From positions 3,390,001 through 3,422,000 of the forward strand of contig NZ_CP066018.1 in NCBI RefSeq assembly GCF_016127575.1: DNA of 32,000 bases. Reading direction: 5' to 3'. The notes beneath the pieces are model-generated. The model had not been told where the DNA came from. It saw only the letters and a program-made list of their open reading frames with translations, and ran no database searches. The DNA is from Cupriavidus necator (GTDB taxonomy: Bacteria; Pseudomonadota; Gammaproteobacteria; Burkholderiales; Burkholderiaceae). Shown here in pieces: positions 5,929-32,000 of this stretch. A program made the translations under genes and the position numbers. Numbering within the stretch: the stretch's first letter is position 1; each line of letters starts with the position of its first letter.

Positions 5929-5997
5929 GAAAAACTCCGCATTGACAATCAGTGGGTCGGGCTTGCTACTACGGTAGTTGCCGTGCAGGTCCGCACG

Positions 5998-6011
5998 TTG
6001 ATGCAACGCAA
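5998..6011. promoter_or_regulatory. Degenerate FNR/FixK-like box TTGAT-GCAA-CGCAA (TTGCG-TTGC-ATCAA in groEL orientation)
   Basis: 8/10 match. Centre is ~77 bp upstream of the groEL ATG 5928. Confidence 0.35.
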
Positions 6012-7511: not shown

Positions 7512-7542
7512 CGCGGGCACGGCAGGCAGGCTGCTGCAGCCA

Positions 7543-11875: not shown

Positions 11876-11889
11876 TTGACAGGCATCAA
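11876..11889. promoter_or_regulatory. Near-consensus FNR/FixK box TTGAC-AGGC-ATCAA
   Basis: 9/10 match to TTGAT-N4-ATCAA. It lies in the 448-bp divergent region, with centre ~120 bp upstream of the lipoprotein ATG 12003 and ~330 bp from the LRAT ATG. Confidence 0.55.
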
Positions 11890-12002
11890 CCCGTATGTCC
11901 GGCCGGACGCTACCTTCCGGTAACCGAAGATCACCGCCACTACGGGCATTTCAATGCGTTGTCGGAGGGACGAAACTGGAGATTACGTGGAGCTTTGTAC
12001 GC

Positions 12003-14822: not shown

Positions 14823-15246
14823 GGCGAACCCGATCCCCTGCGTAACTGGCGCCGGTTGCTGGGATACTCCCGCTGATGCCTTCAGGCGATCGCAGATCCT
14901 GCCGCGCTGGCGGCTGCGCAATCCCGGCTGCACGCCGAATCAGGCACTGTGTAATGGTGATGTTAGTCCAACAGGCACCGGGCCGATAATAGCCTCGGCC
15001 GCAGGCAGGGCGCGCCAGCCAGCCCTGGAGATAGTCGATGGCTGCAGGGGCCGCGGTTCGCGGCGCCACGGAGATGATTCGGCACGGCGCGGACCCGCAG
15101 TGGCTGTCGGCGGTACTGCCGTATTCGCTCACTCCTTGATGCACGCGGCGATTACGGCGCATTTTCGGTTCAAATTGCGCTTTGGCCGGTGCCGCCCTAT
15201 ATATTTGGGGGGCGAGAAGCACTCTCAGACAATCATCGTCCATTCC

Positions 15247-16971: not shown

Positions 16972-17036
16972 TGCGACATGCCTCATGATTGGGGATGGCA
17001 TCGCAGTTGTCCGGAATCAAGCCCCCATGTGCCGGG

Positions 17037-17105
17037 GTAATTCTGGCGATTGTAATTGCGAACGCCGCGACCGGCTTCATTCAGGACGGCAAGGCGGAAA
17101 AAAGC
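17037..17105 (+). pseudogene. Short remnant of a P2-type (CtpF/Ca-Mg-like) P-type ATPase, TM2 region
   Basis: VILAIVIANAATGFIQDGKAEKS matches the very conserved P2-ATPase block ..V..NA.vGFiQE.kAE.al. The similarity is lost on both sides. Only ~23 codons, so low confidence. Confidence 0.35.
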
Positions 17106-17281
17106 CACGGACCGTTTCGGCACCGGCGACGCTACGCCGAATGCTTTGCAGACACTCACTCCATTCTGCTGCTGCAGCGGAACTGCCGTCGCAAGAGCGA
17201 CGGCCGGACGGCAAGGGGCTGGCAGGTTTGCGGTCTGACGGGATTAGTCCGCACGAGGGCCAAACCTTACGGCTAGACCCA

Positions 17282-17842
17282 TCATCCGCCTGGCGCCATC
17301 TTTCCACCCATGCCCGGACCCATCCCCGGCCCCATGCCCGGACCCATGCCCGGACCCATGCCCATGCCCGGGCCCATGCCTTGGTCGTTGGCCATCGTCT
17401 GCATCATTTCCTGCATGAACGCCATGTGACTACCCGCCATGTCTTGGCACATCTGCATTTGATTTGATGGGGCGTTTCCCTTGGCGACTCTCTTGCCAGG
17501 AGCCATACGAGCAGGGCCGCCCATTTTCATCATGTCCTTTTGCATGATGGCCATTGCATCTTGCATGACCTGATGGCGTTCAGCCAAGAGGGCCTGACGC
17601 TCCTCCGGCGTTTTGGCACGCGAAAGCCGCTCTCTGATGGCACGCAGGTGGGCAACCTGGGCGTCCAGCTTTGCATCGCTGGAAACTCCGGGAGTTACGA
17701 CCGGAGCCTTATCTTGCCGCTTTTCAGGATGGTGCTGCTCATGCTCAATGCCGGTAGCCGGCGACGCCGGGAAAGCTGCTGGCGCCCACGCTAGCACGGC
17801 GGCCGCAGTGATAAGGGTAGAGAGGCGATGGTTGGTGGACAT
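17282..17842 (-). CDS. Secreted Met-rich protein with C-terminal (GPGM)n repeat; possible periplasmic Cu(I)/metal-binding or CpxP/Spy/ZraP-like protein
   Basis: 186 aa. RBS AGGAGGA. Signal peptide LITAAAVLAWAPAAFPA|SP. I counted 23 Met in the C-terminal ~105 residues. Tail: GMGPGMGMGPGMGPGMGPGMGPGMGGKM. The function is inferred from composition only. Confidence 0.7.
   Translation of the reverse strand: MSTNHRLSTLITAAAVLAWAPAAFPASPATGIEHEQHHPEKRQDKAPVVTPGVSSDAKLDAQVAHLRAIRERLSRAKTPEERQALLAERHQVMQDAMAIMQKDMMKMGGPARMAPGKRVAKGNAPSNQMQMCQDMAGSHMAFMQEMMQTMANDQGMGPGMGMGPGMGPGMGPGMGPGMGGKMAPGG
17309..17380 (-). repeat. In-frame 12-nt coding microsatellite (CATGCCCGGNCC on the + strand = GPGM), five units plus two 6-nt half-units
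   Basis: Units at 17309-20, 17321-32, 17333-44, 17345-56 and 17363-74. Half-units catgcc at 17357-62 and 17375-80. Confidence 0.85.
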
Positions 17843-17907: not shown

Positions 17908-17921
17908 TTGATTGGGATCAA
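17908..17921. promoter_or_regulatory. Perfect FNR/FixK consensus box TTGAT-TGGG-ATCAA
   Basis: 10/10 match. Centre is 72.5 bp upstream of the Met-rich protein ATG (17842). This fits a class II (-41.5) activator site with a ~30-nt leader. Confidence 0.75.
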
Positions 17922-18214: not shown

Positions 18215-18658
18215 TTACGCCCGTTGCATGCTTGATTTGGCGCGCTCCGCGACGTCGAACACGAGCATGCCAGCCACCATTGCTGCCACAAAGCCAATGG
18301 CCTTCGGATAGCCAGCGCCCAGGGCAACCAGCGCGGGACCAGGGCAGAAGCCGGCCAGACCCCAGCCGACGCCGAAGGCGGCGCTGCCCAGTACCAGCCG
18401 CAGCGTTACGGCCGTGCTGGCCGGCAGTTGCACAGGCAGCCCCAGGAAGGAGTGTTTGCGGTGTTTGGCGATGAGGAAGGCGAGCGAGCCAATGGCAATG
18501 GCACCGGCCATCACAAAAGCGAGGGACGGGTCCCAGGTTCCTGCAAGGTCAAGAAAGCCCAGCACCTTGGCCGGGTTGGCCATGCCGGAGACCATCAGGC
18601 CAATGCCAAATAGCAGGCCTGCGACGAGTGCAGTCATGGCGGTCATATCAGCCTCCAA
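18215..18658 (-). CDS. YeeE/YedE-family (DUF395) half-size sulfur-compound transporter subunit
   Basis: 147 aa, four hydrophobic helices, GFCPGPALVALG motif. Overlaps the upstream paralogue by 11 nt. Confidence 0.8.
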   Translation of the reverse strand: MEADMTAMTALVAGLLFGIGLMVSGMANPAKVLGFLDLAGTWDPSLAFVMAGAIAIGSLAFLIAKHRKHSFLGLPVQLPASTAVTLRLVLGSAAFGVGWGLAGFCPGPALVALGAGYPKAIGFVAAMVAGMLVFDVAERAKSSMQRA

Positions 18659-19082
18659 TCAGGTGCCGTTGCACGAAGACAGTCAGGAATCCCGCCACCA
18701 TGAAGGTGAGGGTGGCGACCAGCGAGCGGATGGAGCCGCGCGAGATGCCGCACACGCCATGGCCGCTGGTGCAGCCGCTGGCGTAGCGGGTGCCAAGGCC
18801 GACCAGGAAGCCGGCGGCCAGGATTTCGCCCCAGCTTGCCTGGATATCCGCAATGGCGGGCTTGCCGAGCAGGCTCGCAATCACAGGAGCGCCAACCAGG
18901 CCAGCGAGGAAGGTCAGGCGCCAGGCCATGTCCTTTCGAGGCAGGCTAAGCAGGCCGCCGAAGATGCCGCTGATGCCGGCAATGCGGCCGTTGAACAGCA
19001 GCAGCACAGCGGCCGCCGCACCGATGATGAGCCCGCCGACCAGTGACAGGCCGGGCGTGAAGTTAGCGAGGTCAATCAGCAT
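18648..19082 (-). CDS. YeeE/YedE-family (DUF395) half-size sulfur-compound transporter subunit
   Basis: 144 aa. GTRYASGCTSGHGVCGISRGS motif typical of the family. Overlaps the bigR-like gene by 7 nt. Confidence 0.8.
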   Translation of the reverse strand: MLIDLANFTPGLSLVGGLIIGAAAAVLLLFNGRIAGISGIFGGLLSLPRKDMAWRLTFLAGLVGAPVIASLLGKPAIADIQASWGEILAAGFLVGLGTRYASGCTSGHGVCGISRGSIRSLVATLTFMVAGFLTVFVQRHLIGG

Positions 19083-19414
19083 GTCGCCTCCTGATCGGGG
19101 TTGGCACAGAACTGTTCATAAAGGACCGCCATGACGGCAAGCGCCTGGGGGCTCGCCACCGAATAGAAGATGTTCTTGCCGTCACGGCGCGTGGCCACCA
19201 GGCTGTTCTCGCGCAGCACACCGAGCTGTTGAGACAGCGTCGGCTGCCGGATGCCGAGCTGTTCCTCCAGCTCACCGACAGACAGCTCGCCTTGGGACAG
19301 GCGGCACATCAGCAGCAGGCGGTCCGGATTGGCAAGCACCTTGAGCAGGGTACAGGCCTGCGCCGCAGCAGCTTGCATGCTGGCGAGGTCGATGGCGGGG
19401 TGGGGCTGGTCCAT
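19076..19414 (-). CDS. bigR: ArsR-family winged-helix repressor, BigR-like redox/persulfide switch
   Basis: 112 aa. wHTH region SVGELEEQLGIRQPTLSQQLGVLR. Cys37 (LLMCRL) and Cys103 (EQFCAN) are 66 residues apart, the same spacing as the Cys42/Cys108 pair I recall for Xylella BigR. The genomic context is YeeE x2 plus a divergent blh. Confidence 0.8.
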   Translation of the reverse strand: MDQPHPAIDLASMQAAAAQACTLLKVLANPDRLLLMCRLSQGELSVGELEEQLGIRQPTLSQQLGVLRENSLVATRRDGKNIFYSVASPQALAVMAVLYEQFCANPDQEATC

Positions 19415-19437
19415 AGGTCGTTTACATTTTGCTTGTT

Positions 19438-19478
19438 AATATTATATTGAAAAATAGAATGTATGTGAATAGAATGTA
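19438..19478. promoter_or_regulatory. AT-rich divergent promoter/operator candidates: palindrome AATAT-T-ATATT and direct repeat AATAGAATGTA x2
   Basis: Palindrome at 19438-19448. 11-nt direct repeats at 19453-63 and 19468-78 (15-bp period). These lie in the only 84 bp between bigR and blh, a segment that is strikingly AT-rich for this genome. Confidence 0.4.
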
Positions 19479-19498
19479 CTGCATCCAAGGAGGCGAGC

Positions 19499-20359
19499 AT
19501 GCACCCGACTATCCAGCCGTTCTTCGACCCTGCGACCTGGACTGTGACGTACGTGGTCTTTCAGGAGGGGCGCCCCGAGTGCGCCATCATCGACTCGGTG
19601 CTGGACTACGACCCCAAGGCGGGTCGGACATCGACGGCAAGTGCTGATAAGGTTGTTGCGTTTGTGCGCGCGCATGGACTGAGAGTCGAGTGGATTCTCG
19701 AGACGCACGCGCATGCTGACCACCTGTCTGCCGCGCCGTACCTGAAGCGACACCTGGGTGGCCAGACAGCAATAGGCCAGAACATCCGCAACGTACAGGG
19801 GGTCTTCAAGACGCTCTTTAACCTGGAGCCTGAGTTTCGGCTCGACGGGTCGCAGTTCGACCACCTGTTTGACGACGGAGCGACGTTTGCCATCGGCGGC
19901 CTGACCGGCAGGGCGATTCATGTGCCAGGGCATACACCCGCCGACATGGCTTACCAGATTGGGGACGCGGTCTTTGTCGGCGATACGCTGTTCATGCCGG
20001 ACGTCGGCACGGCTCGCTGCGATTTCCCGGGCGGCGACGCACACGAGTTGTATCGCTCCATCCGCAAGCTGCTGGACCTGCCGAGCAATACACGGCTCTT
20101 TATGTGTCACGACTATCCGCCCGAGGGGCGCGGGCCTGCATGGGAAACGACGGTGCGCGCTCAGCGCGAAGGCAATATCCACGTGCATGACGGCGTGAGC
20201 GAGGAACAGTTCGTGGCCATGCGCCGGGCGCGCGATGCGACGCTGGCGATGCCGACGCTGCTTCTGCCGTCGGTGCAAGTCAATATACGAGCCGGGGAGT
20301 TGCCGCCGCCCGATGCGAATGGCGTTCGCTATCTAAAAATCCCTCTGGACGTCATCTGA
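19499..20359 (+). CDS. blh: MBL-fold hydrolase, Blh/ETHE1-like persulfide dioxygenase candidate
   Basis: 286 aa. RBS AAGGAGG. Metal motif THAHADH and a later HVPGHTPAD. Divergent from bigR, as in BigR-type sulfide detoxification loci. Confidence 0.8.
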   Translation: MHPTIQPFFDPATWTVTYVVFQEGRPECAIIDSVLDYDPKAGRTSTASADKVVAFVRAHGLRVEWILETHAHADHLSAAPYLKRHLGGQTAIGQNIRNVQGVFKTLFNLEPEFRLDGSQFDHLFDDGATFAIGGLTGRAIHVPGHTPADMAYQIGDAVFVGDTLFMPDVGTARCDFPGGDAHELYRSIRKLLDLPSNTRLFMCHDYPPEGRGPAWETTVRAQREGNIHVHDGVSEEQFVAMRRARDATLAMPTLLLPSVQVNIRAGELPPPDANGVRYLKIPLDVI

Positions 20360-20379: not shown

Positions 20380-20592
20380 TGTTCCCATTGCGATGGCGAC
20401 GAACCGGAATGCACTCTCGACGCGGCCACCGAGCGCCGCAGCTGCGCCCAGGCAGAGCGCGCCGATGCCATACCCGAGGTCGCGCCAGAAGCGGTAGATG
20501 CCGATGGCGGACGCCCGCCAACTGGGGTGTGCGATGTCGGCTACCGCAGCGCTCAGATTGGGGTACAACATCGCCATGCCCGGCCCGGTCAT
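20380..20592 (-). pseudogene. C-terminal remnant of an MFS transporter
   Basis: YPNLSAAVADIAHPSWRASAIGIYRFWRDLGYGIGALCLGAAA looks like TM11-12 of an MFS protein. Nothing upstream corresponds to the first ~330 aa, and the reading frame runs into the 3' end of blh. Confidence 0.5.
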
Positions 20593-20755
20593 CCCTCGGG
20601 CTTGTTACGGCTTCGTCATACTTCACCGTAGTGCTGCCAGCGACCCAATTAGCCTCCGCCCCTGCTCAGAACGGACAGCAGGCCTCTAACTTCAATGATG
20701 CTGGTCTTCATCTCATCCATCCTCGCAGGTCACAAGTTCGTGCTGCGCTACCGTC

Positions 20756-21559
20756 TCACTTCGAAATCGCCCCGCTCAGAAGATGTTCCTCTGCATAAGG
20801 AAACACAACTTCCGGATTAGGGCGAATCAGCTCAGCGTCCTTGTGCGCATAGTGAAGGCGGGTCAGTAGATCCTTGATGACGCTGAGGCGTGCGACATGC
20901 TTGTCGTCGGCGCGCACGACGTTCCATGGCACGATGTCGCTGGTTCGAGCAAACATCTCGTTCCGTGCCTTACTGTATTTCTTCCAAAGCGATACCGCTT
21001 GTTCGTCAATGGGGCTGACTTTCCACTGTTTTAGCGGGTCCCGGCGGCGCTCTTCGATGCGCTTCTTCTGTTCGGCCTTGCTGATGTCAAGGTAGTACTT
21101 GATAAGACGAATTCCGGAACGCACGAGCATCCGTTCGAACTCTGGGACACTTGCCATGAACTCCTCATGCTCGTCCTTGGTGCAGAAGCCCATCACATGT
21201 TCCACACCGGCCCGGTTGTACCAACTGCGATTGAAAAGGGTGAACTCGCCGGCCGCAGGCAGCTCGGCCGCATAGCGGCGGAAGTACCAGGAGCCTCGGT
21301 CACGGTCGGATGGCTTCCCCAGTGCGACGACGCGCGTTTCACGCGGACTGAGGTGTTCGACAATGCGCTTGATGGTCCCATCCTTCCCAGACGCATCCCT
21401 TCCCTCAAAAATCACCAGAATCCGGTCGCTGCAGGAAATGAAGTGCTTCTGTAGTTTGACCAGCTCGATTTGAAGCAGGTGGAGATTCTCCTCATAGCTG
21501 TCATGGGAGAGGGCGCTTGCCTCGGATGGAGCCGTCTTGCTACTTGTCTTCATTTTCAT
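20756..21559 (-). CDS. ppk2: Polyphosphate kinase 2 (single-domain PPK2)
   Basis: 267 aa. RBS GGGAGGTG. Walker-A-like FEGRDASGKDGTIK, followed by FNRSWYNRAGVEHVMGF and the lid region. Confidence 0.9.
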   Translation of the reverse strand: MKMKTSSKTAPSEASALSHDSYEENLHLLQIELVKLQKHFISCSDRILVIFEGRDASGKDGTIKRIVEHLSPRETRVVALGKPSDRDRGSWYFRRYAAELPAAGEFTLFNRSWYNRAGVEHVMGFCTKDEHEEFMASVPEFERMLVRSGIRLIKYYLDISKAEQKKRIEERRRDPLKQWKVSPIDEQAVSLWKKYSKARNEMFARTSDIVPWNVVRADDKHVARLSVIKDLLTRLHYAHKDAELIRPNPEVVFPYAEEHLLSGAISK

Positions 21560-21990
21560 GGTTCACCTCCCTTGAGTCGGGCGCATCGGGTGGGAAAGGG
21601 TGGGGCTTTCCAGGTGAAAGCGGGGTAACTTTTTCGTTGAGCAACAGCTCCAGCGAAGGGCGGTCTACGACCTCCTGTTCGAGCAGTAGCTTTGCCAGCG
21701 CGTCTGGCTTGTGCCGGTTTGCCAGCAATGTTTGCTTCACCCGCTGACTGGCGTCGCCCAGAATCGTCCGCACTTCTGCATCAATGATTTGCGCAGTACT
21801 CTCGCTGTACTCTTTGCGTTGCCGAGGCATTGGCAGCTTCGAGGTCCTGGACCAGATTGGGGTCGTTGACCCGAAGCGTGGAGAAGGGGTGGTCTCCCTT
21901 TCCCTGGCGCAACATCTCTTCGACCTGTGGCTTGGGGAGCAGAGTCTCAATGCCAGTGGTGACACGAGCTCGTAAAGAGCTGTGGCGCAA
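21540..21990 (-). pseudogene. ftsH: C-terminal remnant of an FtsH-family protease (frameshifted, N-terminally truncated)
   Basis: One frame reads RKEYSESTAQIIDAEVRTILGDASQRVKQTLLANRHKPDALAKLLLEQEVVDRPSLELLL, the FtsH C-terminal helical region (compare ..SDETARIIDQEV...L...ETID). An upstream piece, VTTG...GDHPFSTL...PNLVQDL, is in another frame. The AAA and zinc-protease cores are absent. Confidence 0.6.
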
Positions 21991-22020
21991 GGACTTGGAG
22001 TCATATCGCCATTCTTGGTA

Positions 22021-22287
22021 TCAGGTCTCTCCTTGAAGGCTGTTGTGTAACCATGCAAAGAATGCCCCGGCAGCGAAGAACCACACCGCAAACACAAAGG
22101 CTGGATAGATGATGGACCACCACGATACTGATTCGCCGGTCTGAAGGCGCCGGAAATCGAGCCCGTGAAAGAGCGCGTTCATGAAATTCATGAAGGGCTC
22201 AGGAAGAACCATCCAGACGAGCGTGCATAGAACGTAGAACAGCACGACCGTGGCGGATAGCGTCAAACCAGTCTTGAAGGGTTTCAT
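22021..22287 (-). CDS. Small multi-pass membrane protein (resembles what RefSeq labels DUF5676; recalled from memory)
   Basis: Track ORF trimmed to ATG 22287 (GGAGG 6 nt upstream). 88 aa with hydrophobic segments LTLSATVVLFYVLCTLVWMVL and IIYPAFVFAVWFFAAGAFFAW. Confidence 0.6.
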   Translation of the reverse strand: MKPFKTGLTLSATVVLFYVLCTLVWMVLPEPFMNFMNALFHGLDFRRLQTGESVSWWSIIYPAFVFAVWFFAAGAFFAWLHNSLQGET

Positions 22288-22323
22288 GGCAGCCTCCGGG
22301 TGCAAGGAAGATGACGGTTGAAT

Positions 22324-22992
22324 TCAATGAGGACGCGTCCGCGGAACATCTCGGGCTGAGATATGCGGAATGAACGCTGGTGTCTTTTGGCGATATTCCT
22401 CATATGCTTGCCCGAACTCGGCCAGTGCGTCCTGCTCCTCCGACTTGGCCAGCCGAACATACATCCAGACCAGGATGGGGAACATCACCAGAGTGACTAT
22501 CGTCGGCCACTGCAGCAGGAAGCCGAACATAATCAGGACGAACGCGACATACTGGGGGTGCCTCATGCGCGCATAGAGACCAGTGGTCGCCAGGCGGTGC
22601 TGCTGCTGGGCCAGGTACAGAATGCGCCAGGCGGAAGACAGCATGATGAAGCCGCCAAAAATCAAGATGTCGCTGGCGATGTGAAATGGCCCCAGGTGCG
22701 GGTTGCCCCTCCAGCCGAAAATCATCTCCGGAAGATGACCGGCATCATGCGAGAGGAAGTCGATTCCCGGGAATTTCGCCGAAAGCCACGGTAGCAGGAG
22801 ATAGATACTCAGGGGGATGCCATACATCTCTGTAAAGAGCGCCACAATGAACGCGGAGAACGCGCCAAACGAGCGCCAGTCGCGCTGGGTCTTCGGCTTG
22901 GTGAAGCTGAAGGCGAAGATGATGAAGACAGCTGAGTTGATAATGACCAGCGACCAGAGACCGTAGCTGGATTGTGTTTCGGGTTGCATCAT
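22324..22992 (-). CDS. Integral-membrane ICMT/PEMT-family SAM-dependent methyltransferase
   Basis: 222 aa, multi-pass. Family motif TGLYARMRHPQYVAF, followed by EEQDALAEFGQAYEEYRQKTPAFIP. The start overlaps the DUF2933 stop (ATGATG/TGA at 22987-22992). Confidence 0.8.
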   Translation of the reverse strand: MMQPETQSSYGLWSLVIINSAVFIIFAFSFTKPKTQRDWRSFGAFSAFIVALFTEMYGIPLSIYLLLPWLSAKFPGIDFLSHDAGHLPEMIFGWRGNPHLGPFHIASDILIFGGFIMLSSAWRILYLAQQQHRLATTGLYARMRHPQYVAFVLIMFGFLLQWPTIVTLVMFPILVWMYVRLAKSEEQDALAEFGQAYEEYRQKTPAFIPHISARDVPRTRPH

Positions 22993-23249
22993 CGCTCTCC
23001 TTTGGCGTTCGTGTCCTTGGTGGCGTCATCCGGTCCGTGACCGTGTCGATGTCCACCGTGCATGAAGATGTGCATTAAGGGGCAGGCGGCCAGCAGAAGA
23101 AATGGCAGGAACTGAATGACGTGTGCCCGGTGTTCAGTCCATAGGAAGTAGGCAATCACCAGCAGAAAGCCAATCATGACCAGCTTGGACCTGGCCACGG
23201 TGCGCAGTGCGTCGCCAGGCCGCTCATGACCGTTGTGGTCGTGGTTCAT
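22989..23249 (-). CDS. DUF2933-like His-rich small membrane protein
   Basis: 86 aa. N-terminal MNHDHNGHE, two TM helices, then ACPLMHIFMHGGHRHGHG. Confidence 0.7.
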   Translation of the reverse strand: MNHDHNGHERPGDALRTVARSKLVMIGFLLVIAYFLWTEHRAHVIQFLPFLLLAACPLMHIFMHGGHRHGHGPDDATKDTNAKGER

Positions 23250-23439
23250 GTTTTCCTCCTATAAAGCGAACGCCGTACCGCCTGGCAGCAGCCATGGTGC
23301 CGATGACGTAGGTGTATGTATCTCGCTTGGTCTTGCTGAAAAACTGTTCGCCGTTCCGCCAAGCAGGAGCCAAGTGAGACTCTGTGATAACCAGTTCATA
23401 GACCCTCTCTTCAACCTTTGTCTTGGCGTTCACGCTCAA
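23224..23439 (-). CDS. Questionable 71-aa ORF (TTG start, no RBS), unknown function
   Basis: It fills the only gap in the array and overlaps both neighbours (29 and 26 nt). Its composition is protein-like ([42 protein letters not shown]), unlike shadow ORFs. No credible start signal was found. Confidence 0.25.
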   Translation of the reverse strand: MSVNAKTKVEERVYELVITESHLAPAWRNGEQFFSKTKRDTYTYVIGTMAAARRYGVRFIGGKHEPRPQRS

Positions 23440-23626
23440 CTGCGTTTCGTATATCGCGCTCGCACTGTCGCGAAAGGCGAAGACTCAACCACACCACAAC
23501 GACCGGACAGGACAGCAGGAGTAGGCCAACCAGTATGGTGAACGGTGTCAGCCCAAACCGGTAGACGATAGCTGCCGCGAGTAGCATTGCAAAGGCAGCG
23601 CAAATCCATGCCACCGGGTGTTTCAT
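23411..23626 (-). CDS. Small two-TM membrane protein translationally coupled to the Cu ATPase
   Basis: 71 aa. Its ATG overlaps the ATPase stop (ATGA, 23623-23626). Two hydrophobic helices, then a charged tail [19 protein letters not shown]. Confidence 0.55.
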
Positions 23627-26106
23627 CTCGCCTCCAGGCTGGCAATTCTGGCGCCAAGTCGTACACGCTTCAGCAATGCGGAGTTGGCTACCACACTCAA
23701 TGAGGACAGTGCCATTGCTGCTGCGGCAAAGATGGGGTTCAGGAGTCCAAGTGCGGCGATAGGGATGCCGATGGTGTTGTAGATGAACGCCCAGAAGAGG
23801 TTCTGTTTGATTTTGCGCATCGTCGCGCGGGACAGCTCAATGGCGGCAACCACGTCACGCACGTCATCGCGAATGAGGATGATGCTCCCAGTTTCCTTCG
23901 CGACATCCGAGCCTGAGCCGATGGCAATGCCGATGTCCGCTGCGGCAAGCGCCGGTGCGTCATTGACGCCGTCTCCCACCATGGCCACGACCTCCCCTTG
24001 CTTCTGTAATGCGTGAATGGTCTCGACCTTGTCTTCCGGCATCACCTCGGCAATGACATGCTCAATGCCAACCTGCCGGCCGATTGCCTCGGCGGTGCGG
24101 CGGTTGTCACCGCTCAGTAGCACAACCTTGATGGCGCGCGCCTTCAATGCCGCGATTGCCTCGCTCGCTTCCGGTTTCACAGTGTCAGCCACGGCCACTA
24201 CGCCGAGCAATTGTGTGCCGGCGCCGACCAGCATGGCTGTCTTGCCATCGGCCTCGAGCTTCCCGAGTACAGATTCGGCCGATTCGATTGGGATGCCTTG
24301 GCGTGCAAAGAGACGCCGGTTGCCCAGCCAGACTTGCTGACCGTCGACGAGGCCCTGAATGCCCATGCCAGACAATGCGCTGATGCTGGCTGCCTTGGGA
24401 ATGGTGAGCGCGCGATACTGTGCGGCGCGCACGATGGCTTCGCCCAAAGGGTGCTCGGACCCGGCTTCCACAGCGGCAGCAAGAGTCAGCAGGTCAGATT
24501 TCTCTCGCCCAGAAAGGGGGATGACATCGGTCAAGGTCGGCTCTCCGCGCGTAATCGTCCCGGTCTTGTCAAAGACAACCGCGGTGAGCTTCTCGGCCCG
24601 CTCCAGCACTTCACCGCCGCGTATCAGGATGCCGTTGTCCGCGCCCTTGCCGACGCCGACCATCAGCGCTGCTGGCGTGGCGACGCCTAGCGCGCAGGGG
24701 CAGGAGATAATCAGAACAGCCACGAATGCGAGCAGTCCCTGCGGAAAATGACCGGCGACGGTCCATCCCACTAATGCCAGCATCGCGACCGAAACAACCG
24801 CAGGTACGAAGTAGCCGGTGACCTGGTCCGCCAGTCTCTGAATCTGCGCGGTGCTGGCCTGGGCGTCCTCGACCATCCTGATAATCTGAGCGAGAGCGGT
24901 GTCCGCTCCGATTTTTGTGGCCTGGAAGGTGAAGGCGCCACTGCGGTTTAGCGTGCCGCCAATGACAGCGGCACCAGGCTTCTTTTCCACGGGCATCGAC
25001 TCGCCGGTCAGCATCGATTCATCGACACTGGATTGGCCATCGATAACCTTGCCATCAGTGGGAATCTTCTCGCCGGGGCGTACAACGACCGCTTCGCCCA
25101 CCATGATGCTTTCAGCCGGGATTTCCACCTCCGTCCCGTCGCGAAGCACGTGAGCGACGGCGGGGCGCAGGTCGAGCAGGCGTCGAACAGCGGCGGAGGA
25201 TTTCTTCTTGATGATTTCCTCCATGTATTTCCCCAGCAGCACGAAGGCGATAATGACCGCCGACACCTCAAAGTAGACGTCTCGCTCTTCGACCTTGACG
25301 GGCAGCCAGGACGGAAAGAACAGCACTACTACGCTGTAGAAGTAGGCGACGGACGTCCCCAGGGCGATGAGGAAGTCCATATTGATATTGCGCGTCCGGA
25401 TGGCGTTCCATGCGCCCTTGTAGAAGCTCCAGCCGCCAATGAACTGGACCGGCGTGACGAGAAGGAATAGCCACATCCCCCACGTGAACCAAGGCAGGGC
25501 GGGAATCGGGGCCCAAGTCACGAGCGTCGCGCCGGCTGCCAGTGCCAGGAAGGCGCCAGCCCGCAGCACCGCCAGCGCGAGCACGCCCGTGAGCGCAATG
25601 GTCACGCGCGTCTTCATGGCTTTCAACTCGCTCTCTGGCGACTCGAAGGTCCGAAGGCAGCTCTCGCTGCAGAAGTAGTACTTGCGGTTGCCACGCTCGG
25701 CGGAGAGGGCCGTAGCCTTGTCCACCATCATTCCGCAAATAGGGTCCTTGGCGAGTTGCTTGGCGGCGTGGGAAGCAAGCGCGGGCGTCGCCGCAGGGAT
25801 AGGAGCGACGCCGGGTGGGCTAGGACTGCGGGAGGGCCCAGCCGAGCTACGCCTATCAACGGGGTGAAGAACATATTTCGCCGGGTTGGCTAGGAAAACC
25901 TGCTCACAGTGTGGAGAGCAGAACCAGTATCGCTTCTGGTCGAGCTCCGTGCTGGTAGCGGCCTCCCGTGGGGAGATCTCCATGCCACAGACCGGGTCAC
26001 GCACGAGCTGCTGCGAGGCGGCCGGGCCTGCGGCGGCCGTTGGAGCTGCCTGGGCTTCGGTGAGGCCGTAACTCCCCCCATTAGGGGTGGTGGACTTGGT
26101 CGGCAT
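23623..26106 (-). CDS. Cu(I)/Ag(I)-type P1B-1 P-type ATPase with two N-terminal YHS/TRASH domains
   Basis: 827 aa. RBS AAGGAGAGG. Two copies of DP(V/I)CGM...(Y/W)FCS..C. Transmembrane CPC (IISCPCALG), YN (FIYNTIGIP) and [12 protein letters not shown] signature. DKTGTIT and [10 protein letters not shown] present. No HMA (CxxC) domain. Confidence 0.9.
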
Positions 26107-26188
26107 TCCATCCTCTCCTTGGGGCTATTAAGAGGGGCTGCAGCGCATAAATTACATTTTCATTCTGGGTGACCAGTCGATTTGCTTC

Positions 26189-26202
26189 TTGATTTCAATC
26201 AA
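26189..26202. promoter_or_regulatory. Perfect FNR/FixK consensus box TTGAT-TTCA-ATCAA
   Basis: 10/10 match. Centre is 89.5 bp upstream of the ATPase ATG (26106), within the 240-bp gap after the SAM synthetase gene. Confidence 0.75.
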
Positions 26203-26346
26203 GCGTTCATGGGTGGTCGGGGGTGCGGTGGGTGCCGATTCAGGAATGAATGTCGAACGCCGCATGACGTATGTGTTTGAAGGCTGGGAAGCCGCTCGGC
26301 CAGCCGATGCCGGCGCCGAGGTTGCTTTGCTCCCCATACACCGGGC

Positions 26347-27531
26347 CTAGAAGACCGCTACCGTGCCATAGACCAGCTCATTGACCAAGGCAGGAAGCTG
26401 CGCCAGCTGTAGCGTCGCGAGTTCACGAACTTGCTGCTCCTGGGCGCTCGAGAGGCCGCGCTCGGCCACGACATCAATGGCAAACAGTTGGGGCTGGTCG
26501 ATGGGGCGTCCAATTCCGGAGAGAAGCCGGACGACGACTTCATCCGCGCCATCCACGCTTGCCTGAATATGAGAGGCTAACCGGTGGGCGAGCACGTTGT
26601 AGAGCTTGCCGACATGTGACGCCGGGTTCTTGCCCGCTGCGGCCTCCAGCGACATTGGCCGATAGGGGGTAATCAGGCCATTGACCCGGTTTCCGCGGCC
26701 GACCTGGCCGTCATCACCATGCTCAGCACTTAAGCCAGTGACCGTCAGGTAAATCCCGCTTTCGTCGCAAGCATCCCGGCGATCGAGGGTATTGATTGCA
26801 ATCTCACAGTCGGTGCCGATGTGCTCGGCCAGATACGACCCAATCCGGCCCTTGAGGATGAAGTACTCATCGACGCCTTGGACGCATCGGTCGACAAAGG
26901 CCAGCGCAAGAGTGAGACGGTGATGCGCACCCAGCCGACTCCCCATCACCTTGTAATCGAGGCCCGCCGCCTCAAACATTCCCCTGTCGGCACGTGAGCG
27001 CAGAAGGTCGGCAATCAACAGCACCGCTCTTTCAAGCGATGAGAGTGGCGCATAGCCGACGCCAAAGGATGTGTCATTGGACAGCGAAAGAGACGCTGCA
27101 TTGGTCACGCGCCGGAGGTTCGGGGCCGAGGGGCGGAGGATTGGCTCGATCCGGATGTCATTGCCAATGTCGCCCAAGGATGTCGCCAGGTACTCGCGAA
27201 TGGCCTGCTCGACAACTAGCTCGGCCTTGGCCGACGGAAGTTCGGTAACAGGGCCGGATACTATCAACCGCGTTGAGCGCAGCACTTTGCCACCGCCGAA
27301 CTTTGGCGCGCTCATGCCGCCGATGAGTAGCGCCTTGTCCAGATTGAAGTGCTGGACTGCGCCATAGGCTTCGAAGTATGCGCGGCACAAGGCGCGAGCC
27401 GCAGCTTCGACAGCCCCATCGCATAGGCTATCGGGATGTCCGATGCCCTTGTGCTCGCACATTTCCGTCTGCTCACCTCGCCATGACGGCCCACGCGAGA
27501 TAGCAATCGCTATGTTCTCCATGATGGTCAT
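26347..27531 (-). CDS. Archaeal-type S-adenosylmethionine synthetase (methionine adenosyltransferase, MJ1208/PF01941-like)
   Basis: 394 aa. RBS AAGGGGG. Motif EHKGIGHPDSLCDG near the N-terminus, with length and overall pattern as in archaeal-type MAT. It does not resemble bacterial MetK. Confidence 0.75.
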   Translation of the reverse strand: MTIMENIAIAISRGPSWRGEQTEMCEHKGIGHPDSLCDGAVEAAARALCRAYFEAYGAVQHFNLDKALLIGGMSAPKFGGGKVLRSTRLIVSGPVTELPSAKAELVVEQAIREYLATSLGDIGNDIRIEPILRPSAPNLRRVTNAASLSLSNDTSFGVGYAPLSSLERAVLLIADLLRSRADRGMFEAAGLDYKVMGSRLGAHHRLTLALAFVDRCVQGVDEYFILKGRIGSYLAEHIGTDCEIAINTLDRRDACDESGIYLTVTGLSAEHGDDGQVGRGNRVNGLITPYRPMSLEAAAGKNPASHVGKLYNVLAHRLASHIQASVDGADEVVVRLLSGIGRPIDQPQLFAIDVVAERGLSSAQEQQVRELATLQLAQLPALVNELVYGTVAVF

Positions 27532-27630
27532 CTCGAGCCCCCTTCACGCCGTCGCCCTGTAGCCATTCTATGTAGCCGCGGTAGGTCAAGTCGCGAAGGT
27601 TCGGTTCCCGACTCGGGTTGCCAGGAGTTG

Positions 27631-27644
27631 TTGACGCGAATCAA
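27631..27644. promoter_or_regulatory. Near-consensus FNR/FixK box TTGAC-GCGA-ATCAA
   Basis: 9/10 match. Centre is 106.5 bp upstream of the SAM synthetase ATG (27531) and 46.5 bp upstream of the ATG (27684) of the decayed formate/nitrite transporter gene. A weaker box, TTGCC-TAGC-ATCAA, follows at 27660-27673. Confidence 0.6.
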
Positions 27645-27683
27645 GCACGGTTTTTCGCGTTGCCTAGCATCAATGCTGAAAAT

Positions 27684-28143
27684 ATGACTTTCGATTGCCA
27701 ACTAAGTCGCGGCAGGGCCGCTGGTGCACTATTAGGCTCATGTGGCCTGGCATTTGAAGGTTGCGAAAACGCCGAGCGGGTGCAAACCGTCGGGTGGCCA
27801 AGGCGCGCCTGCCGCTGCTGCAAATGGCGATGCTTGGGCATACTGGCCGGTGCTTTCATCGGGCGGGGAGCGCTGAATTCCGTACGGGTTGCCAGCGACC
27901 CAAGTTTAGGGTTCGCCACCAGCTGCGTGATTGGTAGCTAGCCTGGTGTTTTCATTAGGGCTGCTGCTGGTAGTGCCCGGCGCCAAGCTATTCACTGCCA
28001 ACAACCTATTAGTGATGGCCTGGGCCGACCGGCGAATCAGCAGCTACGAGCTGCTGCGCAATTTTGGGGTTGTGAGCTTGACCAACTTTGCCGAAGCGGC
28101 TGGACTCGCATTGCTGGTTGGTTGCCAGGGTATCCGGTGCTGA
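27684..28143 (+). pseudogene. Formate/nitrite transporter (FocA/NirC family) pseudogene: multiple frameshifts, in-frame stop, 3' truncated
   Basis: Consecutive FNT blocks sit in different frames. The pieces are KARLPLLQMAMLG, then LGILAGAFIGRGAL..SDPSLGF ending at TAG 27939. The last piece is LVFSLGLLLVVPGAKLFTANNLLVMAWADRRISSYELLRNFGVVSLTNFAEAAGLALLV. Confidence 0.6.
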
Positions 28144-28243
28144 ACAACGGACTAGTGGCTGAGCGCTTGGAGCGCATTGCCGTTGCCAATTGCGCCCCAA
28201 GCCCCCAGCCGTTCATTGGTGTGCGCATCCGTACAGATGCCAG

Positions 28244-28474
28244 TTACACCCTGGAACTGTCAATGGTGCTGCCGCCGGGGATGGATCCGTGGCCACCCGC
28301 TGCAAGGGCTGATCGGCTTTCAGTCTTTGCCCCGACAATCGCTCTATCTCCGGCGCCTGCCTCGGTCAGCTGGTCGATCAATGCGACCTTGATCTCGGTC
28401 GGCACTAACGCCTTCTCGTTCTGGAGGCCATCGCGTGGACCGACTTCCACGATCTTGACTTTGTCTGGTTGCAT
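28244..28474 (-). pseudogene. liuE: Hydroxymethylglutaryl-CoA lyase truncated after ~40 codons
   Basis: Intact RBS (GGGGAGG) and N-terminus [40 protein letters not shown]. Similarity ends at ~28355, and the remaining 36 codons to the stop are unrelated. A full-length enzyme is ~300 aa. Confidence 0.65.
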
Positions 28475-28497
28475 TGCCGGAAACCTCCCCCACGATA

Positions 28498-30513
28498 TCA
28501 GGCTTCAAACGCCAGGAGCTGCGACCCTTCAGCCACTTGCTCGCCAACCCCATAGAGCACTTCACTGACGACACCATCCACCGGTGCGCTGATGGTGTGC
28601 TCCATCTTCATGGCCTCCATCACCAGCAGCGGGGCCCCGCGCGTCACGATGCTGCCCGCCTCGACCATCACGGCAATGACCTTGCCGGGCATCGGCGCGG
28701 TCAGCTTGCCGTCTTCGCTTTCAGCCTCGCCAGCGTGCGCCAGTGGATCGAGCCAGGTCAGGCTTACGTGACCACCGGCATGGAAGGCATGAAACACCTC
28801 GCCGTCGGCATGCACTTGGCCGTGCGCGTGGCGCGTACCGAGGTCGACGCGGATCTCATCTCCCTGGCAGTTGCAGGCGAAGGACACAACCTGGTTCGCG
28901 TAGATCAGCGTGCTGCCGCGTGCATCGGTATTCAGCGTCACCTCCAGCACCTGCTCGCCATAGCCGAAGCGCAGCGTGCGCGACACGCCGCCGTTCAGCC
29001 GCCACGCGCCGCCATGGGTCCACGGCGAATGCTGGTCGGCGGCGTCGACGCGGCGCTCGCGCGTCTCGCGGTCGAGCAGCGCGGCCACCGCCAGCGCAAT
29101 GACTTCCAGGCCGACCGGGGCGGCGGGCGGGAACAGCGTGGCTTCGTTGCGCTCGATCAGGCCGGTATCGAGATCGGCGGTGCGGAACGCCTGCGACGAC
29201 ACCAGCCGTTGCAGGAAGGCCACGTTGGTCGACAGCCCCACCACGTGATACGACGCCAGCGCCTGGCGCATGCGCGCCAGCGCCTCGTCGCGGTCCTTGC
29301 CCCAGACGATCAGCTTGGCGATCATCGGGTCGTAGAAGGGGCTGATGGTGTCGCCTTCGCGCACGCCGGCGTCGATGCGGATGCCGGCCGGGCCATGCAC
29401 ATCACCACCGCGCATGAACTGCACCGCCGGCGGTGTGCGCAGGTAGCGCAGCGTGCCGGTGGACGGCAGGAACTGTTTGTCGGGGTTCTCGGCGTAGATG
29501 CGTGCTTCCAGCGCATGGCCGTCGATGCGCAGCTGCTCCTGCGTGAGCGGCAGCGGCTCGCCGGCGGCGACGCGCAGCTGCCATTCGACCAGGTCCTGCC
29601 CGGTGATCATCTCGGTGACGGGGTGCTCCACCTGCAGGCGCGTGTTCATCTCCATGAAGTAGAACGAACCGTCCTGGTTGGCGATGAACTCCACCGTGCC
29701 GGCGCCGACATAGCCGACCGCCTTGGCCGCGGCCACCGCCGCTTCGCCCATGGCGCGGCGGCGCGCCTCGGTCATGCCCGGCGCGGGGGCTTCTTCCAGC
29801 ACCTTCTGGTGGCGGCGCTGCACCGAGCAGTCGCGCTCGAACAGGTAGACGCAGTTGCCGTGGGTATCGGCAAACACCTGGATCTCGATATGGCGCGGGC
29901 GGGTCAGGTACTTCTCCACCAGCACCTTGTCATCGCCGAAGCTGGCCGACGCCTCGCGCTTGACGGAGGTCAGCGCGGCCATGAAGCCGTCGCCCGACTC
30001 GACCACGCGCATGCCCTTGCCGCCGCCGCCTGCGCTGGCCTTGAGCAGCACCGGGTAGCCGATGCGGTCGGCCTCGCGGCGCAGCAGCACCGGATCCTGG
30101 TCCTCGCCGTGGTAGCCCGGCACCAGCGGCACCGCGGCCTTCTCCATCAATTGCTTGGCGGCGCTCTTGCTGCCCATCGCGTGGATGGCAGACGCCGGCG
30201 GGCCGATGAAGACCAGCCCCGCCGCGGCGCAGGCCTCGGCAAAGGCCTCGTTCTCGGACAGGAAGCCGTAGCCGGGGTGGATGGCCTGGGCACCGGTCTC
30301 CTTCGCCATCTCGATGATGTGGTCCGCGCGCAGGTAGCTGTCGCGCGCGGCCGCGCCGCCGATATGCACGGCCTCGTCGCAGAAGGCGACGTGGCGTGCG
30401 TCGGCGTCGGCATCCGAGTACACCGCGACGGTGCGGATGCCGAGCCGGCGGCAGGTGGCGGCCACGCGGCAGGCGATTTCACCGCGGTTGGCGATCAGGA
30501 TCTTGTTGAACAT
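28498..30513 (-). CDS. liuD: 3-Methylcrotonyl-CoA carboxylase alpha subunit (biotin carboxylase + BCCP)
   Basis: 671 aa. Starts [16 protein letters not shown], with ATP-grasp motifs and the C-terminal biotinylation site EAMKMEH. It is flanked by the carboxyltransferase subunit and the HMG-CoA lyase remnant. Confidence 0.85.
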
Positions 30514-30531: not shown

Positions 30532-32000
30532 TTACATGCGGAACACGCCGAACTTCATGTCCTCGATCGGCGCATTCAGGCTCGCGGACAGTCCCAGGCC
30601 CAGCACGGTGCGGGTCTGCGCGGGATCGATCACGCCGTCGTCCCACAGGCGCGCGCTGGCGTAGTACGGATGGCCCTGGTGCTCGTACTGGTCGCGGATC
30701 GGCTGCTTGAACGCCTCTTCCTCTTGCGCGCTCCACTTGCCGCCCTTGCCCTCGATGCCGTCGCGGCGCACCGTGGCCAGCACGCTGGCGGCCTGCTCGC
30801 CGCCCATCACCGAGATGCGCGCGTTCGGCCACATCCACAGGAAGCGCGGCGAATAGGCGCGCCCGCACATGCCGTAGTTGCCGGCGCCGAACGAGCCGCC
30901 GATGATCACCGTGAATTTGGGTACCTGCGCGGTGGCCACCGCGGTCACCATCTTGGCGCCGTTGCGCGCGATGCCTTCGTTCTCGTACTTGCGCCCGACC
31001 ATGAAGCCAGTGATGTTCTGCAGGAACACCAGCGGGATCTTGCGCTGGCAGCACAGCTCGATGAAGTGCGCGCCCTTCAGTGCGGATTCGGAGAACAGGA
31101 TGCCGTTGTTGGCGACGATGCCGACGGGGTAGCCCCAGATGCGCGCGAAGCCGCACACCAGCGTGGTGCCGTAGCGCGCCTTGAACTCGTCGAACTCGGA
31201 GCCGTCGACCAGGCGCGCGATCACCTCGCGCACGTCGTAGGGCTTGCGCGTGTCGGTCGGGATCACGCCGTACAGTTCTTCCACCGGGTACAGCGGCTCG
31301 ACCGGCTCGTGCAGGCGGATCTGGTCCGGCTTGCGGCGGTTCAGGTGCTGCACGATATTGCGCGCCAGCGACAGCGCGTGGTGGTCGTTCTGCGCGAAGT
31401 AGTCGGCCACGCCCGACAGGCGCGTATGCACGTCGGCGCCGCCCAGGTCTTCGGCGCTGACCTCCTCGCCGGTGGCGGCCTTCACCAGCGGCGGGCCGCC
31501 CAGGAAGATGGTGCCCTGGTTCTTGACGATGATGGACTCGTCGCTCATCGCGGGCACGTAGGCGCCGCCGGCGGTGCACGAGCCCATCACCACCGCGATC
31601 TGCGGGATGCCCTGCTTGGACAGGTTGGCCTGGTTGTAGAAGATGCGGCCGAAGTGGTCGCGGTCGGGGAACACGTCGTCCTGGTTGGGCAGGTTGGCGC
31701 CGCCGGAATCGACCAGGTAGATGCACGGCAGGTTGTTCTCCTCGGCGATCTCCTGTGCGCGCACATGCTTCTTGACCGTCATCGGGTAGTAGGTGCCGCC
31801 CTTGACGGTGGCGTCATTGCAGACGATCACGCACTCCTGCCCGGCCACGCGGCCGATGCCGGTGATGATGCCGGCGCCAGGCGCGGCATCGTCGTACATT
31901 TCGTACGCAGCAAGCTGCGACAGCTCCAGGAACGGGGTGCCCGGATCCAGCAGTTGCTGCACGCGGTCGCGCGGCAGCAGCTTGCCGCGCGACAGGTGCT
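30532..32000 (-). CDS. liuB: 3-Methylcrotonyl-CoA carboxylase beta subunit (carboxyltransferase), 5' end outside the window
   Basis: Carboxyltransferase two-domain pattern ([11 protein letters not shown]..., [11 protein letters not shown]). The frame stays open upstream of the track's Met at 31962 through to position 32000 (..[18 protein letters not shown]), so the true start is beyond the window. Confidence 0.85.

Follow-up and report, generated by a model that had tools for sequence, protein, structure and literature searches.

The 32-kb stretch of Cupriavidus necator DNA analyzed here (contig NZ_CP066018.1 of assembly GCF_016127575.1, positions 3,390,001 to 3,422,000; the whole stretch is referred to as the window) corresponds to chromosome 1 of strain H16. 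It contains a compact block of minus-strand genes that combines an S-adenosylmethionine (SAM) synthetase of the PF01941 family (MAT), a P1B-type ATPase, a DUF2933 protein and a membrane protein of the ICMT/PEMT methyltransferase superfamily (hereafter ICMT), the latter being 100% identical to a C. necator H16 protein. Read along the minus strand, the features of this block are:

27631-27644, box upstream of MAT, TTGATTCGCGTCAA, FNR/FixK-type, 9/10
26347-27531, minus strand, MAT (PF01941, NF003366)
26189-26202, box of the ATPase promoter, TTGATTGAAATCAA, FNR/FixK-type, perfect
23623-26106, minus strand, P1B ATPase with two YHS/TRASH heads (Pfam, TIGR01511, motifs)
23411-23626, minus strand, 71-aa open reading frame (ORF) with two transmembrane segments (TMs), ATGA overlap with the ATPase stop
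23250-23410, minus strand, remnant of a small YHS-protein gene (pseudogene with split reading frames)
22989-23249, minus strand, DUF2933 (profile E-value 1e-23)
22324-22992, minus strand, ICMT/PEMT-superfamily methyltransferase, ATGA overlap with the DUF2933 stop
22021-22287, minus strand, DUF5676 (profile E-value 1.3e-14)
21540-21990, minus strand, FtsH pseudogene (N- and C-terminal remnants)
20756-21559, minus strand, PPK2 (TIGR03707)

Seven ORFs of the block (MAT, ATPase, 71-aa protein, DUF2933, ICMT, DUF5676 and PPK2) are intact in H16. An earlier note on this DNA had placed here six ORFs with their domains, two 4-bp overlaps and two FNR-type boxes, all of which were recovered in the same positions. 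The note also presented the gene set as an undescribed module, and this part of it does not hold because the copA-(cupredoxin)-DUF2933-ICMT core has already been published (PMC8478169) and the ATPase subtype has been named P1B-1b (PMC5552934). The picture that emerges from our analysis is that the module is real and conserved, that its core was known beforehand, and that the H16 form is a variant with low-oxygen boxes and MAT.

The MAT sequence matches PF01941 over profile positions 2-394 of 395 (E-value 1.7e-129, 432.6 bits), scores 555.5 bits with NF003366 (cut-off 435), and finds its relatives of known structure in 7p83, 6s81 and 4l4q, with E-values of about 1e-83. The GHPD, DKA, GDDG, GRGNR and GKN blocks are invariant in the MAT alignment, and the protein is 99% identical to a C. 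necator protein. These features identify it as a predicted archaeal-type SAM synthetase of the bacterial subfamily NF003366. A classical metK is presumably also present in H16, outside the 32-kb window. The searchable literature yielded no functional study of bacterial PF01941 MATs, and we know of no function assigned so far to the bacterial archaeal-type MATs outside the Aquificae.

The ATPase comprises the E1-E2_ATPase and Hydrolase domains of Pfam along with two YHS/TRASH stretches, and lacks an HMA domain. It exceeds the cut-off of the copper-type profile TIGR01511 (601.5 bits vs 397) and falls below that of the E. coli CopA equivalog NF007952 (581 vs 1316); the DKTGT, CPC, YN and MALSS motifs are legible in its translation, and the CopA structures 3j08, 7r0g and 3rfu match it with E-values of about 1e-170. 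From the motifs, which suggest both the metal and the direction of transport, we infer a P1B-1 (Cu+/Ag+-type) exporter of the 'P1B-1b' subtype. Two N-terminal TRASH/YHS domains and the CPC/YN/M(x)xSS signature are shared with clade VII of P1B-1b (SilP, Lpg1024), in a classification that itself rests on sequence only (Cubillas et al. 2017; PMC5552934); the poly-His start and the CPKC/CPIC motif of the rhizobial P1B-1b members are not seen in the window ATPase (PMC5552934). The 71-aa two-TM protein, whose gene is coupled to that of the ATPase by the 4-bp ATGA overlap, carries an SCP motif and matches no family among the Pfam and NCBIfam profiles; its homologs follow the ATPase in about 10 related loci, with 33-89% identity.

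The methyltransferase scores above threshold with both the ICMT profile PF04140 (38.0 bits vs 24) and the PEMT profile PF04191 (29.3 vs 25) and matches the structures 4a2n (E-value 2e-7) and 5v7p (5e-6). Residues R144, H145, P146, Y148, E185, G194, Y197, Y200 and P205 are invariant in 28-29 homologs, and the RHPxY (here RHPQY) ... EE..FG..Y..Y..P cofactor motifs align with the same motifs of Ma-ICMT. By profile and motif, the protein encoded at 22324-22992 is assigned to the ICMT/PEMT superfamily, with an intact SAM-binding motif. It shares the aligned C-terminal SAM-binding region and the multi-helix membrane organization with Ste14/ICMT (4a2n, 5v7p), MddA and LmtA; unlike these proteins, it has a subfamily-specific N-terminal half, and it misses all the equivalog cut-offs. 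The identities rejected in this way are those of a prenylcysteine O-methyltransferase (Ste14-type, NF040696; 52.8 bits vs 160), LmtA (42.2 vs 325) and MddA (NF045656; 31.6 vs 270, with the match limited to residues 129-209 of the C-terminal cofactor region), and the analogy with MddA drawn in the earlier note fails this NCBIfam test. To our knowledge, prenylated CaaX substrates are absent from bacteria. The protein also contains an invariant, subfamily-specific loop, H82-D83-x-G85-H86-L87-x-E89...G93-W94..N97-P98-H99.G101..F103-H104, and an invariant T54-E55-M56-Y57-G58 block, both outside the region aligned to the solved ICMTs. The His/Asp/Glu-rich loop may be a metal site and, from hydropathy and the positive-inside rule, is inferred to face the periplasm.

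DUF2933 has two TMs and His-rich termini, with TEHRAH and ACPLMH(L/I)FMHGGHGH motifs conserved across 17 loci. Our searches of the available literature detected no functional study of DUF2933 or of this ICMT subfamily. A concatenated query revealed no DUF2933-ICMT fusion proteins (each of the best 120 matches covers at most 72% of the query), so there is no Rosetta-stone support for the pair. DUF5676, another two-TM protein, was listed at 22021-22305 with a TTG start at 22305; its likely start is the ATG at 22287, which follows a GGAGG ribosome-binding site (RBS) and lies 36 bp past the ICMT stop, as had been noted for this gene. It adjoins ICMT in 12 MAT-anchored loci and in the Rhizobium and Gallionellales loci described below.

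Intact homologs of a small, membrane-anchored YHS protein, about 100 aa long, are encoded between the 71-aa gene and DUF2933 in other genomes (L001-L003 and elsewhere; L numbers denote the loci compared). In H16, the remnant at 23250-23410 retains the N-terminus MNWLSQSLTWLLLGG and the C-terminus ...FQQDQARYIHLRHRHHGCC / ...RYIHLRHRHHGCC, the two being out of frame with each other and the YHS core between them deleted. A -CC or -GCC end is conserved in the intact relatives (L001-L003, L006, L018, L044, L046, L048). The small YHS -CC protein as a universal methyl acceptor is a weakened candidate, both because the H16 gene is a pseudogene while ICMT is intact and given that the Nostoc YHS protein lacks the CC tail. 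In the FtsH pseudogene, about 1.3 kb is deleted internally, the pieces are out of frame, and the C-terminal remnant covers Peptidase_M41 positions 130-189; an intact 646-aa FtsH lies between DUF5676 and PPK2 in L002 and L081. Neither pseudogene had been mentioned in the earlier note. PPK2 is the conserved last gene of the island form MAT-ATPase-...-DUF5676-FtsH-PPK2.

To characterize the neighborhoods, the MAT alignment was scanned against one genome per species. This gave 348 relatives, and the comparison was carried on with the best 80 loci; the full-flank set consists of the 46 non-Aquificae loci in which MAT has 5 kb or more of sequence on either side. ICMT (58-96% identity) is encoded within 10 kb of MAT in 25 of all 80 loci and, in the full-flank set, in 22 of 46 (48%); a close ATPase ortholog is present in 13 of these 46, and at least one of the two in 24. 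This co-occurrence, which the earlier note had proposed to count, is far beyond chance and spans Burkholderiales, other beta- and gammaproteobacteria, alphaproteobacteria and a Nitrospirota metagenome-assembled genome (MAG). Unbiased ORF clustering across the 80 loci likewise returned P-type ATPases (28 loci) and ICMT (25 loci) as the commonest neighbors of MAT; a UbiB/ABC1 kinase is found near MAT in 16 loci and immediately adjacent to it in many. ICMT is no more than 1.5 kb from MAT in 10 of the 80 loci, and the ATPase is equally close in 9. The MAT loci show at least four gene orders: MAT-ATPase-71aa-YHS-DUF2933-ICMT-DUF5676-FtsH-PPK2 in Cupriavidus and Ralstonia; MAT-DUF2933-ICMT without an intervening ATPase in L004, L008 and a C. 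oxalaticus plasmid; DUF2933-ICMT-MAT in L046, L047, L062 and L067; and a divergent arrangement in L016.

Proteobacterial MAT is present on 12 plasmids, at least 7 of which also carry ICMT. ICMT itself was detected on 256 of 72,556 plasmids; 70 of these are from Acinetobacter, and Sphingobium, roseobacters, rhizobia and cyanobacteria are also represented. Metagenomic homologs of the DUF2933-ICMT pair number in the thousands, with 60-80% identity across phyla. In all the ICMT-anchored loci that we opened (Nostoc pCC7120beta, a Rhizobium plasmid, three metagenome contig families and a Gallionellales MAG), ICMT is invariably partnered by DUF2933 and by a Cu-type ATPase whose heads are of the YHS and/or HMBD type, and the stops and starts of DUF2933, ICMT and the ATPase often overlap; MAT is absent from every one of these loci. 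ICMT in these loci is 74-79% identical to the H16 protein whereas the adjacent ATPase is just 37-38% identical, which suggests that the DUF2933-ICMT pair moves between ATPase clades. In terms of gene context, the core of the module is a triad of ATPase (with YHS/TRASH or HMBD heads instead of HMA heads), DUF2933 and ICMT, to which lineage-specific accessories, MAT among them, are added; DUF5676 and small YHS proteins are frequent additions. Elsewhere, the module neighbors multicopper oxidases, CusF, HMA, DUF411 and cupredoxins. The proposal of a dedicated SAM supply for the methyltransferase stands in part: MAT does lie beside DUF2933-ICMT in several independent orders, but 'dedicated' is an overstatement, given that MAT is an accessory in a minority of ICMT loci and is also found in FNR-box-rich hypoxia islands without ICMT. 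Within the window, the segment from roughly 15 to 28.3 kb has a GC content of 56-62%, down from about 68%; this drop, together with an island edge that abuts a stub of an HMG-CoA lyase gene, indicates that the block belongs to an acquired island.

The closest described relative is the merR-copA-cupredoxin-DUF2933-ICMT 'core' cluster reported on genomic islands, with copper-induced copA in Alteromonas (Cusick et al. 2021; PMC8478169). As in that cluster, which is found on mobile islands and plasmids of many genera, a Cu-type P1B ATPase stands beside DUF2933 and ICMT (PMC8478169); in the window the three genes lie on one strand, and the same triad recurs in L083-L093. The window differs from the Cusick cluster in that merR/cueR is missing and FNR-type boxes occur in place of a metal sensor, in the two YHS/TRASH heads of the ATPase, and in the additional 71-aa and DUF5676 genes and the adjacent archaeal-type MAT; there is no cupredoxin domain among the annotated ORFs of the module. 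The function of the methyltransferase was not addressed in that study (PMC8478169).

The box TTGATTGAAATCAA is centred 89 bp upstream of the ATPase ATG and is accompanied by a CAGAAT -10-like hexamer at class-II spacing; TTGATTCGCGTCAA is centred 106 bp upstream of the MAT ATG. Searching the window with CueR, CsoR, CusR, FNR and NarL using tblastn produced no match, in agreement with the earlier claim that no copper-sensor regulator is encoded there. Four TTGAT-N4-ATCAA boxes with at most one mismatch occur in the window where 0.31 would be expected, a number not attained in any of 100 shuffles. The 80 MAT loci together contain 129 TTGA-N6-TCAA boxes vs 9.5 +/- 3.4 in shuffles, an approximately 14-fold enrichment. 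A box precedes MAT in 16 of 77 related loci, mostly from Burkholderiaceae. When the MAT-ATPase spacers of the window, L002, L003, L007 and L081 are aligned, conservation is concentrated in cTTGATTnnnnTCAAg, a -10-like block at class-II distance and the RBS. Perfect boxes also head MAT-less operons, both in Rhizobium, 87 bp before DUF5676-hyp-DUF2933-ICMT-CopA ('hyp' being a hypothetical protein), and in Gallionellales. A LemA-YgcG(TPM)-TPM trio is very often divergent from MAT and shares with it a spacer that contains an FNR box in 10 of 13 loci (L002-L005, L008-L011, L017, L031, L057, L065, L081).

Several side observations concern these elements. The LemA-YgcG-TPM trio is lost in H16. Elsewhere in the window, a perfect FNR-type box, TTGATTGGGATCAA, is located at 17908-17921, 66-79 bp upstream of the start of a Met/His-rich protein, and a fourth, FNR-like box, TTGACAGGCATCAA, at 11876-11889, between an LRAT/NlpC-like ORF (11072-11554, minus strand) and the ORF at 11895-12476 (plus strand).

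Expression data that bear on this wiring come from Bradyrhizobium diazoefficiens, in the cluster of bsl7992-bll7991-bll7990, bll7989 (mat) and bll7988-86. Under microoxia, bsl7992 (DUF2933), bll7991 (ICMT) and bll7990 (hyp) are down 20-23-fold, and bll7989 is 5-fold lower, in a fixK2 deletion; bsl7992 has a FixK2 box at -59 (PMC9104804). This cluster resembles the window in the adjacency of DUF2933, ICMT and a PF01941-type MAT and in the FixK2 box TTGATCTGCGTCAA at the head of an operon that is FixK2-dependent in microoxia; it differs in that no P1B ATPase is listed and an ABC/FtsX/HlyD exporter follows mat (PMC9104804). The genes of this cluster appear in transcriptome tables only (PMC9104804). 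The assignment of the Bradyrhizobium mat to the PF01941 type follows from synteny with Bosea pB32-1, where the order is ICMT-MAT-ABC-FtsX-HlyD and MAT is of that type.

The low-oxygen control put forward previously is supported by the box enrichment, the conserved box of the ATPase promoter and the FixK2-dependent Bradyrhizobium orthologs (PMC9104804). Comparison of operon heads in Cupriavidus, Ralstonia, Rhizobium, Gallionellales and Bradyrhizobium shows predicted FNR/FixK-type boxes replacing a MerR/CueR gene. Set against the merR head and copper-induced copA of marine gammaproteobacteria, the FNR boxes mark the H16 form as a regulatory variant; by this analogy, it is a form in which the copper input would have been replaced by a low-oxygen input. 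A scan of 20500-27900 for sigma-70 promoters and terminators found no promoters and no more terminators than in shuffles, an outcome that is uninformative because class-II activator-dependent promoters are expected to escape such a scan. The publications that we consulted on anoxic or oxygen-limited expression in H16, on lxa, on FnrL of D. shibae and on the CH34 genome contain no mention of MAT, ICMT or DUF2933.

Two further systems show partial likeness. The lxa locus of B. cenocepacia is an acquired island dense in FNR/Anr-like motifs; besides stress proteins and a metal-dependent RNase, it encodes a cation-transporting ATPase and a set of ABC transporter components (Sass et al. 2013; PMC3721108). 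Given these contents and its requirement for anoxic persistence, lxa matches the wider type of island around MAT; unlike the window, it has no reported MAT, ICMT or DUF2933 (PMC3721108). CzcN/NccN of C. metallidurans are ICMT-family membrane proteins within a metal-efflux determinant, a likeness by description, and differ in being tied to RND-type Co/Zn/Cd/Ni efflux rather than to a P1B ATPase (PMC7563307).

Taken together, we consider it probable, if by no means assured, that the block represents, in H16, a horizontally mobile module for copper handling that is turned on at low oxygen. The proposed scheme is as follows. When oxygen falls, an FNR/FixK-family activator encoded elsewhere would fire two class-II-type promoters and switch on two units, MAT alone and the genes from the ATPase through DUF5676. 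The ATPase would expel cytoplasmic Cu(I) pre-emptively, with no copper sensor involved, under the anoxic conditions in which Cu(I) would be most damaging to Fe-S and radical-SAM enzymes. DUF2933 and ICMT would form a stoichiometric pair at the membrane, where the methyltransferase could use SAM on a membrane-associated acceptor tied to Cu(I) handling, the candidates being a lipid or a small partner protein that offers a carboxylate or thiolate as ligand. The extra MAT would keep SAM supplied for the methylation step upon induction, and FtsH and PPK2 might be co-travelling stress functions.

A number of observations weigh against this interpretation. The MAT promoter has an imperfect box and a poor -10 element, and the TTGAT-N4-ATCAA pattern does not separate oxygen sensors (FNR/Anr/FixK) from NO sensors (Dnr/NnrR). 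Within 10 kb, 22 of the 46 full-flank MAT loci lack both ICMT and the ATPase, and MAT loci of this kind hold other hypoxia-island genes, namely UbiB, LemA/TPM and ABC/FtsX/HlyD. Most ICMT loci are without MAT, which implies that the methyltransferase normally runs on housekeeping SAM. The connection of ICMT and DUF2933 with copper comes from gene context, and structural modeling adds modestly to the picture of ICMT: the AF2 (AlphaFold2) model is moderate (pLDDT 73, with about 55 in the N-terminal half), and its best fold matches in Foldseek, to the ICMT structures 5v7p and 5vg9, are weak (TMq 0.46, E-value 1.8e-3). Finally, FtsH and the small YHS protein, both of them conserved members, are lost in H16. 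In other genomes, ICMT is cut to a 53-codon piece in the C. pinatubonensis plasmid p2 (L081, 16548-16706) and frameshifted in Bosea pB32-1 (L094, 1448-1961), and the ATPase is mostly deleted in the R. pickettii RAL3 chromosome (L001, 11425-11950). These losses indicate that selection on the full set is not strict.

A more specific version of the proposal is that a whole clade of YHS/HMBD-headed Cu(I) ATPases has DUF2933-ICMT as its obligate partner, active as an enzyme, that export or hand-off involves SAM-dependent methylation of a copper ligand, and that in some lineages a MAT of its own secures this step in hypoxia. The candidate ligands would be a carboxylate or thiolate of a small membrane protein, for example in the conserved C-terminal -CC tail of the YHS protein, and a membrane lipid. 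We offer this version as speculation that is rather unlikely to be correct in full.

The alternative that best survives is that MAT is a general SAM synthetase of the hypoxia regulon, a booster or stress-proof back-up of MetK whose product would go to radical-SAM enzymes (HemN, for example) and to methylations in anoxia, of quinones or otherwise, and that it adjoins ICMT because both reside in shared FNR-controlled islands. The approximately 14-fold box enrichment is seen with or without ICMT, and the 22 of 46 loci devoid of both ICMT and the ATPase speak in the same direction; with about half of the MAT loci lacking copper genes, this explanation stays alive. The recurrent neighbors of MAT (UbiB, LemA-TPM, ABC/FtsX/HlyD, metallo-beta-lactamase (MBL) RNase and thymidine phosphorylase) resemble the contents of the lxa locus (PMC3721108) and the FixK2 regulon (PMC6515984), the window holds paralogs of housekeeping proteins (GroEL-like, DksA-type, FtsH), and in Methylocystis and B. 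vietnamiensis MAT is found near class I SAM methyltransferases rather than ICMT. What counts against a mere shared address is that ICMT is the most frequent specific neighbor of MAT (25 loci, 10 of them within 1.5 kb, in varied orders and on varied strands), that the MAT-ICMT pair survives the loss of the intervening ATPase (L004, L008 and the C. oxalaticus plasmid), and that ICMT loci are mostly not hypoxia islands, so that the MAT-ICMT overlap exceeds what a common location would provide. We regard this alternative as rather less likely than not.

It is improbable, in our estimate, that ICMT and DUF2933 serve mainly as subunits that bind copper or hand it off, or that regulate the ATPase, with methyl transfer irrelevant or vestigial. 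The strict translational coupling of ICMT and DUF2933, often extending to the ATPase, would fit such a role, as would the invariant Cys/Met/His motifs of DUF2933 and the invariant, subfamily-specific ICMT loop HD.GHL.E...NPH..FH. The cofactor motifs, however, are invariant from cyanobacteria to betaproteobacteria (57-96% identity), a SAM synthetase has been repeatedly recruited beside ICMT, and no DUF2933-ICMT or ICMT-ATPase fusions were seen. Still less likely is that the H16 block is what is left of an acquired island, in decay and of no functional relevance: the two pseudogenes (FtsH and small YHS), the fragmentary FNT transporter and HMG-CoA lyase genes that flank the island, and independent losses of ICMT or the ATPase in relatives are compatible with decay, but the seven ORFs are intact with their RBSs and couplings kept, the ATPase promoter box is conserved, and the proteins share 84-97% identity with their counterparts in other Cupriavidus strains. 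The least plausible option is an MddA-like thiol/sulfide S-methyltransferase that detoxifies H2S or methanethiol in anoxia together with a BigR-Blh module, the copper link being indirect: some databases do label close homologs 'methanethiol S-methyltransferase', a BigR-like ArsR, two YeeE/YedE and Blh are encoded nearby (18215-20359) and Blh/ArsR homologs flank MAT in L007, but that is just 1 of the 80 loci, the invariant partners of ICMT are the Cu-type ATPase and DUF2933 rather than sulfur genes, and the resemblance to MddA stays far below the equivalog cut-off given above and is restricted to the C-terminal cofactor region.

The genes around the block complete the picture of the island, which also includes a sulfide module, a Met-rich protein, a second P1B-type ATPase and a histidine kinase. 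An ArsR/SmtB member (19076-19414, minus strand) is the sole metal-sensor-family protein of the window; two YeeE/YedE half-transporters follow it (18215-19082, minus strand) and a Blh-type persulfide dioxygenase is divergent (19499-20359, plus strand). This grouping makes the ArsR/SmtB protein look BigR-type, and the segment 18215-20359 looks like a BigR-type sulfide-response module. A secreted Met/His-rich protein encoded at 17282-17842 (minus strand), with repeats such as MQKDMMKM and (GMGP)n and no Pfam match, looks like a periplasmic Cu(I) binder. A P1B-5-type ATPase with a TPCP motif and a C-terminal hemerythrin domain lies within the island at 12522-14933 (minus strand), and its homolog (81% identity) neighbors MAT in C. 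neocaledonicus (L012). A PAS-PAS-HisKA_3 histidine kinase is encoded at about 15256-16971 (plus strand), with no NarL-type response regulator in the window; the start listed for this ORF (14530) falls inside the ATPase gene, and the true start is probably further downstream. There is no recognizable gene at 16985-17467, downstream of the kinase.

At the island edge (27700-28475), a fragment of a formate/nitrite-transporter gene at 27931-28143 (plus strand) is followed by the HMG-CoA lyase stub of about 27 codons (28355-28435, inside the ORF 28244-28474, minus strand). Upstream of the stub, the methylcrotonyl-CoA carboxylase genes are intact (28498-30513 and 30532-31962). The remainder of the HMG-CoA lyase gene, sought across the window as a marker of the far island border, was not found. 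Upstream of the low-GC part, the window encodes a Cpn60/GroEL-family protein (4291-6006, minus strand), a DksA/TraR zinc-finger protein (7394-8206, plus strand) and a two-domain APH + AAA_33 kinase (9445-11016, minus strand), paralog-like stress genes that recall low-oxygen islands such as lxa. Many ORFs at 1-12 kb and 16.9-19 kb have no match in Pfam and are probably shadow ORFs of high-GC DNA.

The DUF2933-ICMT pair is among the most widespread uncharacterized companions of bacterial copper ATPases. The repeated recruitment of a SAM synthetase and the low-oxygen wiring in several lineages suggest that the methyl-transfer activity matters, and predict when it would matter, namely under Cu(I) stress without oxygen. 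Because H16 is genetically tractable and is grown industrially under oxygen limitation, this prediction is directly testable and may have a bearing on metal tolerance in gas fermentation. The bacterial archaeal-type MATs, for their part, would gain a concrete physiological context.

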